Origin: Mobula hypostoma
Taxonomy: Eukaryota
Direction of reading: 5' to 3'
DNA length: 64,000 nucleotides
Assembly (NCBI RefSeq): GCF_963921235.1
Contig: NC_086108.1
Location: 19,530,001 to 19,594,000, forward strand
How positions within the stretch are numbered: the first letter of the stretch is position 1; the number at the start of each line of letters is the position of its first letter. The translations under genes were made by a program, and so were the position numbers. Below are positions 7,465 to 64,000 of the stretch, piece by piece. The notes below the pieces were generated by a model. It ran no database searches and had not been told where the DNA came from. It saw nothing but the letters and a program-made list of their open reading frames with translations.

Positions 7465-7851
7465 AAAGAGGAGGAAGTATTCTAAAGGAAAGATGACACA
7501 ACAGTGGCTAGCAAGAGAAGTCCAAGCCAACATAAAAGCCAAAGAGAGAACATATAATAGAGCAAAAATTAGTGGGAAGTCAGAGGATAGGGAAGCTTTT
7601 AAAAAAACCAGACAGGAACTAAAAAGTCATTAAGGTAAAGATGGAATACGAAAGTAATATTAAAGAGGATACCAAAAGTTTCTTCAGATACATAAAGTGT
7701 AAAAGAGAGGTGAGAGTGGATATCAGACCACTGAAAAACAATATTGGAGAGGTGGTAATGGGGGCAAAGAAATGATGGATGAACTGAAAAAGTATTTTCA
7801 CTATGGAAGATACTAGCAATGTGGTGGAAATTCAGAGGGTTGAGGTTCGGG

Positions 7852-8850
7852 TGCGAGTATGCGGGCAGTGGGCAAAATATCCCTCTATTGTTTGGGGATC
7901 TCATACTGGAGATGCAGTATCACTTTATCCTGCCACTTTGTTTTTGCCCCACTTTGTCATCATCTCAGTCCCCAACTTTCCTTTTCTCGGATCTTCCTCC
8001 TCTTTAACCTCCATTCTGGAGTTTCAGTTACAATGGTGGAGTTATTGCCTATGGATAGTGTTTTGGATCTGGTGTCTTTTTTATGCGGACTGTGTGCTGT
8101 GATCTGGGGGTTGTGCGATAGCTAATTGAGGGGTGTCGTTGGGAGGGACATGCCCAGGGGTAGAGTTAGGTAATGGGGGTTGAGGATTCACGGCGAAGGG
8201 AGCTGGGGTGGCAAATGGCATTGCGGGGGGGGGGGGTCCCCTGCAGTAGGGGGGGGAGGGCTGAAATATGAGCCTAACTGCTGGTGCTATTGGGTGAATT
8301 TGGCCCCTTGACGGGGTAAGGCTTGGGTTTATGGGGGTGGTTAGGGTTAGGGTTAGGGTTAGGATGCGAGTATGCGGGCAGTGGGCAAAATATCCCTCTC
8401 GTGTTTGTGGATCTCGTACTGGAGATGCAGTATCACTTTACCCTGCCACTTTGTTTTTGGCCCACGTCATCATCATCTCGGTCCCCAACTTTCCTTTACA
8501 GGGATCTTCCTCCTCTTCAACCTCCATTCTGGAGTTTAAGTTACAATAGTGGAATTATTGCCTATGGATAGTGTTTTGGATTTGGGGTCTTTTTTATAGG
8601 GACTGTGTGCTGTGATCTGGGGGTTGTGCAGTAGCTAATTGAGGGGTGTTGTGGGGAGGGATATGCCCAGGGGTAGAGTTAGGTAATGGGGGTTGAGGAT
8701 TCACGGCGAAGGGAGGTGGGGTGGCAATTGGCATTGCGGGGGTGGGGGTGTCCCCTGCAGTAGGGGGGAGGGCTGAAATAGGAGCCTAGCTGCTGGTGAT
8801 ATTGGGCGAATTTGGCCCCTTGATGGGGTAAGGGCTTGGGTTTATGGAGG
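7852..8850. repeat. Tandem duplication, ~513-bp period
   Basis: TGCGAGTATGCGGGCAGTGGGCAAAATATCCC starts at 7852 and 8365 (third partial start at 9006); units are highly similar. Confidence 0.9.
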
Positions 8851-9758
8851 TGTGTAGCAGGGTTGGAGATGTTAGGTTTAGGGGCTGTTATATAAGCCCT
8901 TTAGTGTGGTGTAGTTTGGGTTATTTGGGGTGCTGTCCCGTTTAGTTAGGGTGCACGGTCCATTGGAAATTAGGGTTAGGGTTAGGGTCAGGGCTGGGGT
9001 TAGGATGCGAGTATGCGGGCAGTGGGAATTTGGCCCCTTGCTGGGGTGAGGGTTTGGGTTTATGGGGGTGTGTAGCAGGGTTGGAGGTATTAGGTTTAGT
9101 GGTAGGGCAAAGGACTATTATATAAGCCCTTTAGTGCGGTGTGGTTTGGGTTATTTGGGGTGCTGTCCGGTTTAGTTGGGGTGCCCGGTCCATTGGAAAT
9201 TAGGGTTAGGGTTTAGTTGGGGTGTGTGGTCCTCCGGATGTTAGGATTAGGTTGGGGGGGGTTAGGATTGAGGGGGGCCCGCTGGGCGGCAGGAGGTATA
9301 ACTGGTGATGTGGGGTGAGTTTGCCCCTCCGGCGAGAAGAGGATCTGTGTTTATGGGGTGTGAAGATGTTAGGTTTCAGGGCAGGGTCATGTGCTGGGGA
9401 TGTATTCTTCCCCATCGGGGAAGCTGGGAAGTTGGGGCAAGTGCTGTGTCTGGATTAAACCGGTCGTTACGCGTCTGTTCTTCCTTGTGGTTATCTCCTG
9501 TAGCGTCATAATTTCTAATTTTACTCCTCTCTACTTGGGGAATTAGGTTCTGTTCTGGGGCCTAGTTGTTAGGCTCTATTTCCAAAGTAAGACAAACCTT
9601 TCCTATTTAGTGGTCCCCTGTCTTAATTTGTTTCAGGGTGAGTGACTGAAGGGGATCTTCCCCTTCTTCCCTACTCTAATTTTCTCAATTTTTAAAAAAA
9701 TTACGGGGTGCAGTGTTGGCCCTTCGGTGATTACATTTTATGTTGTTGGCCTGGTTTT

Positions 9759-9906
9759 TTAGGCCTCGTTTAGGCCGTTTGGGGAATGCATCTGTAGTCT
9801 TTCAATCCATCTCCTCTGCTCTTTTTCTTTGGAGGTTTGACCAGTTTATGCTGGTTTCCAGGCCCAGGATTGCTAAGGAGTACATTCCATGCTCCAGGAA
9901 GTGTCC
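9759..9906 (-). pseudogene. GIY-YIG endonuclease C-terminal remnant of the same PLE
   Basis: Manual translation GHFLEHGMYSLAILGLETSINWSNLQRKRAE/WIERLQMHSPNGLNEA* with one frameshift; HF..HG, R..E..WI..L...P.GLN pattern typical of PLE endonuclease ends. Confidence 0.75.
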
Positions 9907-10538
9907 CGAAGGATATCCCTTACTGCCTCTATACCCCTATCCGTTTCTATATTGGTGTACAGGCTTTCAATGTCCATGGTGAAGAGTATGGCCTCAGGGG
10001 GCACTGACATGGAATTGACTATCCGGACAAAGTGGTACGCGTCTTTGATGTAGCTGGAGTGTTTCTGCGATAGTGGGTTAAGGAAGGAATCAATGTATTC
10101 TGCTATCCTGTATAACTCACTGCTGCAGTCCGACACGATAGGCCTGCCGGGTGGTATTTCTCCCGGAACAGTCCACGAGTCTGGGTTCTTGTCTATTTTG
10201 GGGAGGACATAGAACTTTCTTGCTCGTGGCTGTATCCCTATCAGGTACTCCACCTGCTTCTTCCCGAGGTATCTAGTCCTTTCTAGTTCTCGTAAAATGT
10301 TCCTAATTTCTGTGTGTGTTTCCCAGTATATGGGTTCCTTTAGTTTAGTGTAGTGTTCCGTGTTGTTTAATTGTCTGTCTGCCTCAAATAGATACTGCTG
10401 TTTGTCCATGATAACTATGCTGCTCCCTTTATCTGCTGGTTTGATAACAATATCCATATTTTCCTTCAGCTCTTTCAGGGCTGTTCTCTCCTTCCTAGTT
10501 AAATTGGGCTTATCCTGTACTTCTCTCTCCCTCTCCAT
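9873..10538 (-). pseudogene. Penelope-like reverse transcriptase, N-terminal half
   Basis: 221-aa ORF with PLE motifs NLT..ER.AL..L, IKPADKG, YVLPKI.K, PGRPIVS, SYIKD..HF and motif A (FTMDIESLYTNI); ends before the YxDD motif. Confidence 0.92.
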
Positions 10539-11844
10539 TATCTCATCCAGTGTGCTCTCAAATTGTGGGGGTTGGGGTTGGGGTCAGGGTTTAGGGTTCA
10601 TGAAATGTGTGAAGTTACCATAACTAGAGAGGTGGTTCTTAGGAAACTGAAAGGTCTGAAGGTAGATAGGTGTCTGGACCAGATGGTGTACACCCCAAAG
10701 ACGTGGCTGAAGAGATTGTGGAGGCATTAGTAATGATCTTTCAAGAATCACTAGATTTTAGAATGGTTCCAGAAGACTAGTATTTGCAAATGTCACTCCA
10801 CTCTTTAAGAGGGGAGAGAGGCAGAAGAAAGGAAATTACAGGCCAGTTAGACCGAACTCAGTATTGGGAAAACGTTGGAGTCAATTATTAAGTACGAGGT
10901 ACTGGAGGGCAAATGTTTATAAATAGGCTGTAGTCAGCAAGGTTTTCTCAAGGGAAAATCTTGCCTGATAAATCTGTTGAAGAAATGACAAGCAGGATAG
11001 ACAAAGGAGAACCAACTGATGTCCTGTACTTGGATTTTTAAGAAGGCTTTTGACATGGTGCCACATATGAGGCTGTTTAACAAACTATGAGCCCATGGTA
11101 TTACAGGACAGATTCCAGCATGGACAGAGAAATGGCTGATTGGCAGGAGGCAGAGTGGGAATAAAGGAAGCTCTTTCTGGTAGGCTGCCGGTGCATGGGG
11201 GTCTGTGTTAGGGCCAATTCTTTTTACATTATATATCAATGATTTGGATAATTGATGGCTTTGTTGCAAAGTTTGCAGACAACATGAACATAGGTGGAGG
11301 GACAGGTAATTTTAAGTAGAGAGTCTACAAAAGGACTTAGATTAGAAGAATGGGCAAAGAAATGGCAGAAGAAATGAAAGGGTTGACTATTTTCAAAATG
11401 GAGACAAAATACAAAAAACAGAGGCATAAAGGAACTTGGGAGTCCTTGTGCAGGATTTCCGAAAGGTTAATTTACAGGTTGAGTTTGTGGTGAGGAAGAC
11501 ATATGCAATGTTAGCATTCATTCCAAGAGGACAAGACTATAAAAGCAAGGATGTAATGTTGAGACTTCATAAAGCACTGGTGAGGCCTCACTTAAGAGAA
11601 TTGTGAGCAGTTTTGGGCCCCTTATCTTAAAAATGATGTGTTGAAACTAGAAAGGGTTCAAAGGAGACTCGCAAAAATGATTCCAGAATTGAATGGCTTG
11701 TCACATGAAGAGTGTTTAATGGCTCTGGGACTGCATTCACAAGAATTCAGAAGAAACCTCTCAAGGCCTTTCGCCATTCGATAGAGTGGATGTGGAATTC
11801 TTTGCCACAGGCAGCTGTGGAGGCCACGTTTTTATGTATATTTA

Positions 11845-12097: not shown

Positions 12098-15000
12098 CAA
12101 AGGCAGAGGCAAATAAATTTTTGATTGCTCAGGCCATGAAGAGATACGGGAAGAAAGGAAGAGATTGAGCAGAGAGGAAATCTGGATCAGTATCAGAATA
12201 AGGTTTATTATAGAAACATAGAAAACCTACAGCACAAAGCTGTGCTGAACATGTCCCAACCTTAGAACTACCTAGGCTTTACCCATAGCCCTCTATTCTT
12301 CTAAGCACCACATAGCCATCCAGGAGTCTCCTAAAAGACCCTATCGTTGCCGCCAGCAGCCCATTCCATGCACTCACCACTCTCTGCGTAAAAAACTTAC
12401 CCTGACACCTCCTCTGTACCTACTTCCAAGCACCTTAAAATTATGCCCTCTCATCCTAGCCATTTCAGCCCTGGGGAAAAGCCTCTGACTATCCACACGA
12501 TCAATGCCTCATTATCTTGAACACCTCCATCATGTCACCTCTCTTCCTCCATCACTCCAAGAAGAAAAAACCGAGTTCTCTCAACCCATTCTCATAAGGC
12601 ATGCTCCCCAATCCAGGCAACATCCTCGTAAATCTCCTCTGCACCCTTTCTATGGTTTCCACATCCTTCCTGCAGTAAGGGAACCAGAATTGAACACAGT
12701 ACTCCACGTGGGGTCTGACCAGGGTCCTATATAACTGCAACATTACCTCTCGGCTCTTAAACTCAATCACACGATTGATGAAGGCCAATGAACCATATGC
12801 TTTCTTAAACACAGAGTCAACCTGCGTAGCAGCCTTAAGTGTCCTGTGGACTCGGACCCCAAGATCCCTCTGATCCTCCACACTGCTATGAGTCTTATCA
12901 TTAATGCTATATTTTGCCATCATTTTTGACCTACCAAAATGAACTACCTCACACTTATCTGGGTTGAACTCCATCTGCCACTTCTCAGCCCAGTTTTGCA
13001 CCTCTGACAGCCCTCCACACTATCCACAACACCCCAACCTTTGTGTCATCAGCAAACTTACTAACCCATCCCTCCACTTCCTCATCCAGGTCATTTATAA
13101 AAATCACAAAGAGAAGGGGTCCCAGAACAGAGCCCTGAGGCACACCACTGGTCACCGGCGTCCATGCAAAATATGACCCGTCTACAACCACTCATTGTCT
13201 TCTGTGGGCAAGCCAGTTCTGGATCTACAAAGCAATGTCCCCTTGGATCCCATGCCTCCTTATTTTCTCAATAAGCCTTGCATGGGGTACCTTATCAAAT
13301 GTCTTGCTAAAATCCATATACACTGCATCTATGGCTCTACCTTCATGAATGTGTTTAGTCACATCCTCAAAAAATTCAATCAGGCTTGTAAGACACGACC
13401 TGCCTTTGACAAAGCCATGCTGACTAATCCTAATCATATTATGCCTCTCCAAATATTCATAAATCCTGCCTCTCAGGATCTTCTCCATCAACTTACCAAC
13501 CACTGAAGTAAGACTCACTGGCCTATAATTTCCTGGGCTACCCCTACTCCCTTTCTTGAATAAGGGAACAACATCCGCAACCCTCCAATCCTCCAGAACC
13601 ACTCCCGTCTTCACTGATGATGCAAAGATCATTGCCAGAGGCTCAGCGATCTCCTCCCTCGCTTCCCACAGTAGCCTGGGGTACATCCCGTCTGGTCCCG
13701 GTGACTTATCCAACTTGATGCTTTCCACATCCTCTTCCTTAATATCTACATTCTCAAGCTTTTCAGTCCACGGCAAGTCATCCCTATAATCGCCAAGGTC
13801 CTTTTCCATAGTGAATACTGAAGCAAAGTATTCATTAAGTCCTATTCTCTCACGTCTTATTCTCTTGCTCTTCACATACTGTAGAAAGTCTTGGGATTTT
13901 CCTTAATCCTGTCCGCCAAGGCCTTCTCATGGCCCCTTCTGGCTCTCCTAATTTCATTCTTAAGCTCCTTCCTGCTGGCCTTATAATCTTCTAGATTTCT
14001 ATCATTACCTAGCTTTTTTTAACCTTTCGTAAGCTCTTTTCTTCTTGACTAGATTTTTACAACAGCCTTTGTACACCACAGATCGTGTACCCTACCATCC
14101 TTTATGTCTCATTGGAACGTACCTACTCAGAACCCCACACAAATATCCCCTGAACGTTTGCCACATTTCTTCTGTACGTTTCCCTGAGAACATCTGTTCC
14201 CAATTTATGCTTCCAAGTTCCTGCCTGATAGCCTTATATATCCCCTTACTCCAATTAAACGTTTCCCTAACTTGTATGCTCCTATCCCTCTCCAATGCTA
14301 TGGTGAGGGAGATAGAATTGTGATCACTATCTCCAAAATGCTCTCCCACTGAGACCTGACACCTGACCAGGTTCATTTCCCCATACCAGATCAAGTGCAG
14401 CCTCTCCTCTTGTAGGCTTATCTACATATTGTGTCCAGAAAGGTTCCTGAACACACCCAATAAACTCTACCCAGTAGATGTAGTGTATATGGATTTCAGC
14501 AAGGCATTTGATGGTACCCCATGCAAGGCTTATTGAGAAAGTAAGGAGGCATGGCTTTGTGGATCCAGAACTGGCTTGCCCACAGAAGGCAAAGAGTGGT
14601 TGTAGACGGGTCATATTCTGCATGGAGGGCAGTCACCAGTGGAGTGCCTCAGGGATCGGTTCTGGGACCCTTACTCTTCATGATTTTTATAATTGACCTG
14701 GATGAGGAAGTGGAGGGATGGGTTAGTAAGTTTGCTGATGACACAAAGGTTGGAGGTGTTGTGGATAGTGTGGAGGGCTGTCGGAGGTTACAGCGGGACA
14801 TAGATAGGATGCAAAACTGGGCTGAGATGTGGCAGATGAAGTTCAACCCAGATAATTGTGAGATGGTTCATTTTAGTAGGTCAAATATGATGGCAGAATA
14901 TAGTATTAATGGTAAGACTCTTGGCAGTGTGGAGGATCAGAGGGATCTTGGGGTCTGAGTCCATAGGACGCTCAAAGCAGCTGCGCGGATTGACTCTGTG

Positions 15001-21831: not shown

Positions 21832-23560
21832 ATAGACAATAGACAAAAGGTGCAGGAGTAGGCCATTCAAGCCAGCACCACCATTCACTGTGATCATGGC
21901 TGATCATCCATTATCAGTATCCAGTTCCTGGAACCTTTGATTCCACTATCTTTAAGAGCTCTATCCATCTCTTTTCTGAAAGCATCCAGAGACTTGGCCT
22001 CCACAGTCTTCTGGGGCAGAGCATTCCATATATCCACCACTCTCTGGGTGAAAAAGTTTTTCCTCAACTCCGTTCTAAATGGCCTACCCCTTATTCTTAA
22101 ACTGTGGCCTCTGGTTCTGGACTTACCCATCAGCAGGAACATGCTTCCTGCCTGCCGCGTGTCCAATCCCTTAATAATCTTACATGTTTCAATAAGACCC
22201 CCTCTCAGCCTCTAAATTCCAGAGTATACAAGCCCAGTCACTCCAATCTTTCGACCTATGTCAGTCCCGCCATCCCGGAAATTAACCTTGTGAACCTACG
22301 CTGCACTCCCTCAATAGCAAGAATGTCCTTCCTCAAATTTGGAGACCAAAACTGCACACAGTACTCCAGATGGGGTCTCACCAGGGCCCTGTACAGCTGC
22401 AGAAGGACCTCTTTGCTCTTATACTCAATTCCCCTTGTTATGAGGGCCAGCATGCCATTAGCTTTCTTCACTGCCTGCTGTACCTGCATGCTTGCTTTCA
22501 GTGACTGATGTACAAGAAAACCTAGATCTCTTTGCACTTCCCCTTTTCCTAACTTGACTCCATTTAGATAATAATCTGCCTTCCCGTTCTTACCACCAAA
22601 GTGGATAACCTCACATTTATCCACATTAAACTGCATCTGCCATGCATCTGCCCACTCACCCAACCTGTCCAAGTCACCCTGCATTCTCATAACATCCTCC
22701 TCACATTTCACACTGCCACCCAGCTTTGTGTCATCGGCAAATTTGCTAATGTTACTTTTAATTCCCTCATCTAAATCGTTAATATATATTGTAAACAGCT
22801 GCGGTCCCAGCACTGAAACCTGCGGTACCCCACTGATCACCGCCTGCCATTCCAAAAGGGACCCATTAATCACTACTCTTTGTTTTCTGTCAGCCAGCCA
22901 ATTTTTAATCCATGTTAGTACCCTGCCCCCAATACCATGTGCCCTAATTTTGCCCACTAATCTCCTATGTGGGACTTTATCAAAGGCTTTCTGAAAGTCC
23001 AGGTACACTACATCCACTGGCTCTTGCCCATTGGACATCCTTGTCCATTTTCATAGTTACATCCTCAAAAAATTCCAGAAGATTAGTCAAGCAAGATTTC
23101 CCCTTCGTAAATCCATGCTGACTCGGACCAATCCTGTTACTGCTATCCAGATGTGTCATAATTTCATCTTTTATAATGGACTCCAGCATCTTTCCCACCA
23201 CCGACGTCAGGTTAACTGGTCTATAATTCCTTGTTTTCTCTCTTCCTCCCTTCTTGAAGAGAGGGTCAACATTAGCCACCCTCCAATCCACAGGAACTGA
23301 TCCTGAATCTATAGAACATTGGAAAATGATTACCAATGCGTCCAAGATTTCTAAAGCCACCTCCTTAAGTGTCCTGGGATGCAGACCATCAGGTCCCGGG
23401 GACTTATCAGCCTTCAGACCCAACAGCTTATCCAACACCATTTCCTGCCTAATATAAATTTCCTTCAATTCATCCATTACCCTAGGTCCTTTGGCCACTG
23501 TTACATCTGGGAGACTGTTTGTGTCTTCCCTAGTGAAGACAGATCCAAAGTACCTGTTCA
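21832..23560 (-). mobile_element. 5'-truncated CR1 LINE
   Basis: ORFs 22256..23038 ([22 protein letters not shown]) and 22980..23747 (KSPGPDGLHPR, NYRPV). Confidence 0.92.
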
Positions 23561-24755
23561 ACTCAGGACTGTTCAATTGTGTGATATGATCCCCTGGTTC
23601 AAGAGCCTGATGGTTGAGGGGTAATAACTGTTCTTGAACCTGGTGCTGAGAGTCCTGAGGCCACTTTACAACCTTGTTGATGGCAAAAGCAAGACCTGGG
23701 TGTTGGGGGGGTCCCTGGTGAGGGATGCTGCTCTCCTGCAACAGCATTCCATGTAGATCTGCTCCATGATGAGGAAGGCTTTACCTGTGATGGACTGGGC
23801 CACATCCACTAGTTTTTCACACAAGGCCAAGATGCAACCAGTCAATGTGTTCGCCACCAAACATCTAGAGGTTTGTCAAAATCTTAGATGACATACCAAA
23901 TCTTCACAAACTTATAAGTAGAGGTGCTGCCCCCTAAACCCCTATTTCCTCCCCACCCCACCTGTTTTCCCTTATTCTGGTGACCCCCCCACCCCTTCTC
24001 TTCTCCTCCCCTCATGATCTGCCTTTCACCTCTCTCTGGTTTTCCACTTCCTCTTTTTTATTCTATAGTCCACTGTCATCTACTATCTTATGACTTCTTC
24101 AGGCCTTCACCTCTTCCACCTATCACCTTCCAACTTCGCAGAATACTCCTTTTCATCCCCCCTCACCTACTCTCCCATGCCACCCACCAGCTTGCACTCC
24201 TCCCCTTCCCCCACCTCCTTATTGTCCCCTTCCTTCCCAGTCCTGTTGAAAGGTCTCAGTCTGAAACGTTGACTGTTTATTTCCCTTCGTAGTTGTTGCC
24301 TGAATGCTCAGGTTGTGTGTGTATAAACGAAGTTACTGAAGCATTTTTAATCCAGATTCCAGTATCTGCAATTTCCTATGTCTGCAATAGATGTTAGAAT
24401 ATAAAGGAAAACAGAACAAACTAACGTTTTAATTAAGGATATCCAACCAAGCCAGGAGACCAGACCGAGGAACAATATTCATGTGGTCCCATCAGGGCCC
24501 CGTATAATCGGAAAAACAACTCCATACTGAAAACCCCTTTCAGCTTATCAGGGAGGTGAAGGGTAGTTTGAAGTGGAATGTGGGCTGGGGGGGTGGGGGC
24601 TGGGGGCTGGGGGGTGGGGGGGGGAGAGGAGACCGCCCCTCCCCCACGAAAACAGAACCTGCATTTAGAACCTCCACCGTCCCACGATGGCAGCGCCCAG
24701 CCTCCAGACCCGCCATGCCGCAGCCGGCCCTCCCTCCCAGAGACCACGGACTCAC

Positions 24756-63535: not shown

Positions 63536-64000
63536 CTCTCTTCTCCCCCTCCCCCCTCCTCTCTATTCTCTCCCCCTCCCCCCTCCTCTCTATTCTCTCC
63601 CCCTCCCCCCTCCTCTCTATTCTCTCCCCCTCCCCCCTCCTCTCTCTTCTCTCCCCCTCCCCCCTCCTCTCTCTTCTCTCCCCCTCCCCCCCTCCTCTCT
63701 CTTCTCTCCCCCTCCCCCCCTCCTCTCTCTTCTCTCCCCCTCCCCCCTCCTCTCTCTTCTCTCCCCCTCCCCCCTCCTCTCTCTTCTCTCCCCCTCCCCC
63801 CTCCTCTCTCTTCTCTCCCCCTCCCCCCCTCTCTCTTCTCTCCCCCCCCCCCTCTCTCTCTCTCTCCCCCTCCCCCCTCCTCTCTCTTCTCTCCCCCTCC
63901 CCCCTCCTCTCTCTTCTCTCCCCCTCCCCCCCCTCTCTCTTCTCTCCCCCTCCCCCCCTCTCTCTCTCTCTCCCCCTCCCCCCCTCCTCTCTCTTCTCTC
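63536..64000. repeat. CT-rich minisatellite (~29-bp unit), runs off the window
   Basis: CCCCCTCCCCCTCCTCTCT(A/C)TTCTCT repeats. Confidence 0.95.

Follow-up and report, generated by a model that had tools for sequence, protein, structure and literature searches.

The 64,000-nt stretch of Mobula hypostoma DNA analyzed here (the window) carries, at positions 7836-10598, a Penelope-like element (PLE) of Neptune type, a decayed copy lying in a chromosome interior. The family of this retrotransposon encodes an endonuclease and is concentrated at chromosome ends. A first-pass annotation, made from the letters of the window alone, had proposed a vertebrate PLE family that primes on telomeric 3' ends, and this proposal is supported by the terminal enrichment, Athena-like polarity, and joints of the family. 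The element likely transposes in relay with host telomerase, forming head-to-tail terminal arrays with 5' ends facing outward; we give this account a probability of roughly 0.65. The anatomy of the element, its terminal enrichment and polarity, the placing of its 3' joints at CCCTAA blocks, and tags derived from telomerase RNA (TERC) at several joints are direct observations, and such facts about the family are much firmer than the mechanism.

Chromosomal position and polarity of the family

Copies were sought in the same genome (3.48 Gb, 200 contigs) and were found at 89-96% identity. A 20-mer from the nuclease region gave 64 matches, of which 3 were dropped because no element surrounded them and 21, on contigs shorter than 40 Mb, were set aside. 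Of the 40 nuclease-bearing copies, 22, spread over 12 ends, lay no more than 100 kb from an end, an enrichment of 200- to 300-fold over chance if 30-45 chromosomes are assumed. The 5' end pointed outward in 20 of these 22 copies, and polarity was held at 11 of the 12 ends, which is the arrangement that the first-pass annotation had suggested looking for. By comparison, none of 36 CR1 control matches on contigs of known extent was near an end.

From 25 large contigs we inspected 46 ends, in most cases selecting the contig for a match on it. A telomeric tract was present at ten ends, and at eight of these (C1L, C2L, C5L, C9L, C12L, C12R, C18L, and C21L) the family started within 600 bp of it; the C12L tract comprises just 23 repeats and lies behind another simple repeat. 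From the telomere, arrays run inward head-to-tail for up to ~28 kb. Truncation points vary between chromosome ends, and an inverted duplicate is present on C91. The 21 terminal copies tested were all of a young type (1.5-4.6% from the column majority), whereas 17 interior copies were a mixture of young copies, including that of the window, and older ones (median, 9.2%; p 0.005).

Multi-copy clusters within degenerate telomeric tracts also occur in the interior (C9:109492600-109498500, C18:109594000-109605700, and C71:55265001-55295400) and may be former chromosome ends or the outcome of several insertions into copies already in place. At C12:1-18300, C9:34-3600, and the last 10-20 kb of C18, (TGGA)n/(GGAAT)n extends over kilobases outside or among the telomeric repeats, and is either satellite or a read artifact.

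Anatomy and classification of the full element

The full unit is ~6.3 kb long and consists of a pseudo-long terminal repeat (pseudo-LTR), open reading frame 1 (ORF1), ORF2, and a 3' untranslated region (UTR). The 560-bp pseudo-LTR ends in a type I hammerhead motif (core and three stems), called by motif from the hammerhead consensus. Four pseudo-LTR pieces stop exactly at the predicted cut, which fits an RNA ending there with most priming internal. ORF1 has an SGNH esterase-like end with GDS, G, GxN, and DH blocks (top Atlas match GDSL-like, 0.94); its homolog P0121 gave a weak Lipase_GDSL_2 match (E 0.006), and Pfam made no call on the family's own ORF1. In 29 of 34 copies, the slippery sequence TTTAAAC, presumably a -1 frameshift heptamer, stands ahead of the ORF1 stop, and the -1 frame is ORF2. 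One 623-aa ORF2 frame matched both RVT_1 (E 1.6e-6) and GIY-YIG (26.2 bits; Pfam cut-off, 22.6). A C-x4-CxxC linker precedes the nuclease in the family, as it does in P0001 and P0002. The GIY-YIG domain is complete, with a CCHH motif and the catalytic Y, YIG, and R residues; these residues are common to relatives at 53-70% identity. Given the conserved residues and the Pfam score, the nuclease is predicted to be intact and conserved in the family. Thus, the earlier suggestion that the insert descends from an endonuclease-positive element was right as to ancestry but too narrow, since the family still encodes a complete GIY-YIG domain. The 3' UTR is made of 220- and 513-bp units with a CCTAACC block at the end of each; the repeat block is ~555 nt upstream of the predicted hammerhead cut. 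Telomeric repeats and reverse transcriptase (RT) are parts of one element. Long ORF2 copies are 94% alike (median), with best frames of 731, 695, and 623 aa.

Matches to ORF2 were found in 2,164 database proteins, the named ones from bony fish at 48-53% identity. The element nests among fish proteins at ~50% identity in a quick tree, which was built from a quick search only, carries long-branch warnings, and includes no named reference elements. By eye, its RT motifs look closest to those of DreriNep1 and also resemble Neptune1_Nv, as aligned in Fig. S1 of PMC8557442. PDB sequence searches returned nothing useful. Contigs from other organisms span the whole element, and contigs from two runs guessed to be RNA cover much of it, which is not evidence about expression either way.

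A ~2.5-kb deleted derivative (part of ORF1, the start of the RT, and a 3' unit) is tandemly amplified at C18:2683-30074, C1:7875-25410, and C46:624800-638100, with one joint common to the three arrays. A non-coding ~860-bp tandem unit, ~75% like the 3' unit and pseudo-LTR, occurs at C12:21600-23600 and C91:69757581-69767580; it has the same terminal motif, interleaves with the coding family, and is likely a non-autonomous partner. At C58:1-50000 and C77:152571-162570, the last ~115 bp of the element alternate with (CGAAGT/CGAACT)n, not telomeric repeats, in a satellite; these hexamers also border the element in another organism.

Joints between units and their targets

With the C58 and C77 satellite regions excluded from joint counts, the 199 unit ends comprised 33 in which CCTAACC reads through into the pseudo-LTR, 43 internal boundaries, and 123 joints. 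The 3' joint began with CCTAAC sequence in 120 of the 123, and with at least 11 nt of it in 107, so that the 3' joints coincide with CCCTAA-type blocks, and the genome copies examined carry such blocks as well. The native block, in the 33 read-through copies, is 7 nt. Longer tracts bear a host-telomerase footprint, described below; most junction repeats are not native to the element.

A telomere-like tract stands at the 5' joint in seven of 13 interior copies. Three of the 13 are flanked by direct repeats (8, 13, and ~19 bp), such as staggered nicks would leave. In an anole Poseidon element, internal initiation has been shown, without pairing to the target (PMC11167929).

A telomerase RNA tag in the repeats

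A tail, CCCTAATGCGAGGGC, recurs after telomeric tracts. Its 16-mer CCTAACCCTAATGCGA occurs 214 times in the genome (reversed control, 0), at element joints, in telomere interiors, and at PLE-free short interstitial repeats. The genome has a single vertebrate-type TERC gene, at C9:30128925-30129411 (L299), and TERC directly 3' of the template is the tag sequence except for one base, T for C. Two related organisms have C at that position, as in the tag. The T form, matching today's TERC, was found at 84 sites, which with the older form gives 298 exact-match sites; at C2L, C5L, and C21L it is the more distal of the two forms, and at C9L they are mixed. The TERC match, the base in the relatives, and this layering identify the tag as the product of a telomerase that began copying a few bases 3' to the template. 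Because the tag lies inside telomeres and tracks the recent TERC change, host telomerase was the writer of the tagged repeats. An alternative hairpin model, in which the ATGCGAG tail was an inverted repeat of the element holding a telomeric loop, was rejected since the tail is TERC-derived and occurs without the element.

After two of 33 tagged rows were dropped as false positives of the pattern, the older tag remained at 31 element joints, representing ~7 independent events. At these joints, the tag sits directly on the truncated end of the neighbor, and repeats, mostly 11-29 nt of them, separate it from the start of the next element. Tagged tracts most often have the length of one template copy added to the 7 nt native to the element. 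This type of tagged joint is also present in another organism.

Telomere arrays with TERC copies were noted at C2:7207-11730, C21:181-8420, C5:960-1720, and C9:9906-14519; their newer distal and older proximal tag layers are a built-in clock of telomere turnover. At C5:108413743-108413792 and C21:22484640-22484672, head-to-head telomeric repeats are flanked on each side by TERC-like tags, a pattern that would arise if the two ends of one break were extended by telomerase and then joined.

The insert in the window and its target

The 2.76-kb insert splits a CR1-like long interspersed nuclear element (LINE), as first described, and its parts are as follows.

7640..7835, plus strand: CR1-like LINE, left target flank; in 18 of 19 other copies it runs on into the right flank
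7836..7851, plus strand: 3' junction, 16-nt degenerate telomere-like tract, first bases AGGGTT; not at empty sites
7852..8363, minus strand: terminal 513-bp 3'-UTR unit; (CCCTAA)4 at 8339-8363 links the next unit
8364..8807, minus strand: second 513-bp-type 3'-UTR unit, with CCCGCATACTCGCAT at its end before the CCTAACC block
8808..9213, minus strand: pair of ~220-bp 3'-UTR repeats, both containing a CCCTAA block (degenerate at 8970-9004; 9200-9211)
9214..9758, minus strand: unique part of the 3' UTR; 93-96% identity to terminal copies
9759..9903, minus strand: C-terminal 47 codons and stop of GIY-YIG, with one frameshift; YIG core deleted
9903..9904, no strand: junction left by a 1,093-bp internal deletion that removed RT motifs B-E, the thumb, the CxxC linker, and the GIY-YIG core
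9904..10563, minus strand: N-terminal part of the PLE RT, 5'-truncated; 91-96% identity to 29 other loci
10564..10598, plus strand: 5' junction, 35-nt degenerate G-rich telomere-like tract on the cDNA end, ending AGGGTT
10599..10900, plus strand: CR1-like LINE, right flank; 40 of 5057 candidates scored, 83-86%

In the 18 CR1 copies with contiguous flanks, ~11 nt (GTGTCAGGGGT-like) lie between them and the telomeric tract is absent, as is the 35-nt tract of the 5' junction; the insertion event therefore created the two junction tracts. The target sequence was TCAGGGGT, a telomere-like seed (TCAGGG). AGGGTT is indeed present at both junctions (7836-7841 and 10593-10598); since the target is itself telomere-like, it cannot be proved to be a target-site duplication and may belong to the tracts. 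The reported strand bias also stood: the insert contains 11 TTAGGG hexamers on the plus (cDNA) strand and 0 on the minus strand, where the window average predicts fewer than one per strand for DNA of this size. Perfect telomeric runs lie at 8339-8363, 8970-8987, and 9200-9211, and the junction tracts are degenerate, with no perfect hexamer in the left 16 nt and one in the right 35 nt. The terminal 513-bp unit, which also ends most genomic copies, is 90% identical to 8349-8882, and the two ~220-bp repeats are also found in full-length copies. Set against a complete copy from C46, the insert is missing 2.76 kb at the 5' end and 1,093 bp within ORF2. The minus-strand PLE RT reported at first pass is therefore present as its N-terminal part, for which a Pfam search returned zero matches, and the GIY-YIG "remnant" is a true description of this copy only, produced by the 1.09-kb deletion, whereas the nuclease of the family is whole. 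Elsewhere in the window, 13225-13902, 22256-23780, and 63542-64000 hold more eroded RT frames of CR1 type, together with a (CT)-rich tandem repeat at the terminus, all ordinary.

A proposed relay with telomerase and its alternatives

In the relay that we favor, element RNA would be cut at the hammerhead in the pseudo-LTR, and ORF2 would be produced by -1 frameshifting. Telomerase would first put one to a few TTAGGG units on a raw end, whether left by truncation of a copy, by erosion, or by breakage. The CCUAACC of the element, ~555 nt inside the RNA 3' end, could then pair with the new repeats and prime cDNA synthesis; the unfinished cDNA end would again be capped by telomerase, and repetition would yield an array. 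At interior sites such as that of the window, the GIY-YIG nuclease or a chance break would open the target and the same steps would follow; rejoining would leave short telomeric tracts at one end of the insert or at both.

Several observations weigh against this account. Rfam called no ribozyme in the element, and its minimum-energy fold differs from the ribozyme fold. Eighteen of the 40 copies are interior, two of three copies near C91L are in the wrong orientation, and the family was not found in the last 30 kb of C18R and C21R, both telomere-bearing. Younger copies are not distal within arrays (Spearman -0.15, p 0.51, 21 copies), and the proposed age gradient was rejected. One recurrent joint, amplified on C1L, C18L, and C46, accounts for 20 of the 31 tagged joints, and microhomology at the target could also explain the tag there. 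All tagged joints carry the older form and none the newest; with a fully intact ORF2 in 0 of 27 long copies, this gives no support for current activity. The window's own tracts bear no TERC tag, so we infer telomerase as their author.

The strongest alternative is that the element behaves like the LINEs TRAS and SART, its GIY-YIG nuclease nicking the telomeric G strand and inserting inside the tract, with the tags being leftovers of the cut tract. The predicted intact and conserved nuclease fits this scheme, as does the missing age gradient; a G-strand nick would give identical polarity, interior targets are often telomere-like (the TCAGGG seed of the window included), and Neptune linkers are thought, in the passages of PMC8557442 that treat them, to guide insertion into simple repeats. 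However, tagged tracts mostly of 11-29 nt that start at a truncated neighbor would be improbable for nicks in kilobase-long tracts, and the target in the window had no telomeric tract. We therefore consider insertion by nicking unlikely.

A bolder version of the relay, which we regard as decidedly unlikely, makes the family part of an old, animal-wide, telomere-specialized sub-lineage of nuclease-bearing Neptunes whose ribonucleoprotein docks on telomerase through a 15-nt pairing and takes over the end. Window positions 8364-8378 (minus strand), which directly precede the CCTAACC block of the element, are reverse-complementary (8 + 7 nt, with a small bulge) to L299:1538-1555, the part of TERC 3' of the template. 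The duplex energy is borderline, as 105 of 2000 shuffles were as good and, of 1254 other segments of the element, 12 or more gave a stronger pairing. The pairing was noticed after the fact and is retained as a low-odds lead; the complement may be a telomerase scar captured in inverted orientation, or it may serve for docking. If docking is true, vertebrate ends would be a two-enzyme product, the element taking over after one round of repeat synthesis.

Alternatively, subtelomeric duplication may have spread a few ordinary insertions whose tracts are general telomerase scars at breaks, the genome being one in which telomerase is readily active. The joint seen 20 times on C1L, C18L, and C46, the inverted duplicate on C91, and TERC-tagged short repeats at many PLE-free sites are in keeping with this, and such scars probably explain the 5' tracts. 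As an account of the family, it is very unlikely, because truncation points differ among ends, polarity is maintained at 11 of 12 ends, and the CCCTAA blocks occupy fixed places in the element's UTR and are found in distant relatives too. That the telomerase-like RT of the element itself made the repeats, by reiterative copying of its CCUAACC block, is scarcely credible as a general explanation, since the tag follows host TERC, including its recent change, and occurs in true telomeres; many tracts are nonetheless more degenerate than the adjoining element and the 5' tract of the window resembles the internal block at 8973-8993, so self-writing could apply to untagged degenerate tracts such as those of the window.

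Comparison with relatives and known telomeric elements

Relatives at 24-53% identity were collected from 79 metagenome loci in 35 clusters. Tandem CCCTAA was present on the sense strand at 19 of the 79 loci, versus tandem TTAGGG at one (shuffles, 0-1 loci), or in 10 versus one of the 35 clusters. Six clusters have the block downstream of an entire CxxC-GIY-YIG domain. No CCCTAA block was found in one distant Neptune-like copy in the ray genome.

To judge from its sequence, the element works like Athena yet belongs to the Neptune type. It shares with described endonuclease-bearing Neptunes the RT with a C-terminal CCHH GIY-YIG, the CX4CxxC linker, an esterase ORF1 with a frameshift site, and a pseudo-LTR with a hammerhead motif (passages of PMC8557442; PMC5408684 for the esterase in fish Neptunes; PMC12602865 for a Fundulus Neptune). 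A CX2-5CxxC linker before the nuclease defines Neptune and is absent in Penelope and Poseidon, according to the classification passages of PMC8557442. Neptunes described in these passages are intrachromosomal with (TA)n targets, whereas here there are 3'-UTR CCCTAA blocks, terminal arrays, and fixed polarity. The family thus departs from the dispersed, (TA)n-targeted Neptune habit, with 55% of copies terminal and telomeric targets; that is a habit and not a clade criterion.

Athena and Terminon elements of bdelloid rotifers and Coprina of fungi are PLEs that lack the endonuclease (passages of PMC8557442, PMC6431247, and PMC3846280). As described there, they share with our family head-to-tail terminal arrays with 5' ends outward, an esterase ORF, reverse-complement telomeric repeats near the RNA 3' end or joint, and 5' truncations capped by repeats. 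They differ in that the nuclease is here fused to the RT, the GIY-YIGs of Terminons being described as stand-alone ORFs, and in that the repeat block is here ~555 nt from the hammerhead cut, theirs being right beside the hammerhead. The host here, moreover, is a vertebrate. The kuruma shrimp element MjPLE01 is reportedly telomere-associated. It has a Neptune-like RT that uses another 3'-OH source, as cited in PMC8557442, and according to that account its nuclease is lost, whereas here it is kept.

In the lake sturgeon, degraded GIY-YIG PLEs are bounded by telomere-like repeats (PMC12031113), another case of endonuclease-bearing PLEs next to telomeric repeats in fish, and a sterlet protein is 53% identical to ORF2. 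The relevant passages of that paper treat such PLEs as random integrators and mention no family, polarity, or mechanism. Telomere-targeted LINEs (TRAS/SART, MoTeR, and Tx1_Acar of Anolis, the sole vertebrate case listed in the part of PMC10088271 consulted) are likewise nuclease-bearing retroelements sitting among telomerase-made repeats, but with other nucleases; the present element is a PLE with a telomerase-related RT. The TERC-ITS of PMC8537989, a kind of short interstitial telomeric sequence, involves telomerase copying bases next to its template into a break, at one Xenopus locus of 41 in the passage describing it, whereas here the tag is short, has 298 exact sites in telomeres and at retrotransposon joints, and records a TERC change.

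Meaning for Penelope-like elements and telomeres

No telomere-specialized endonuclease-bearing or vertebrate PLE was described in the literature searched, which did not cover the primary Athena, Terminon, and MjPLE01 papers or Repbase and Dfam. The standing division of PLEs, as given in passages of PMC8557442, is between nuclease-less elements at telomeres and nuclease-bearing elements in chromosome interiors. The family breaks that division. Its host is a vertebrate whose telomerase is ordinary, and for vertebrates a 2023 survey lists a single telomeric retroelement, a LINE. As a living intermediate that links the two habits of PLEs, the family bears on how telomerase-related RTs gain and lose nucleases. 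The TERC tag makes a long-inferred step testable from sequence, in that it identifies the enzyme writing the repeats between elements, and the base change in TERC layers the telomeres in time.

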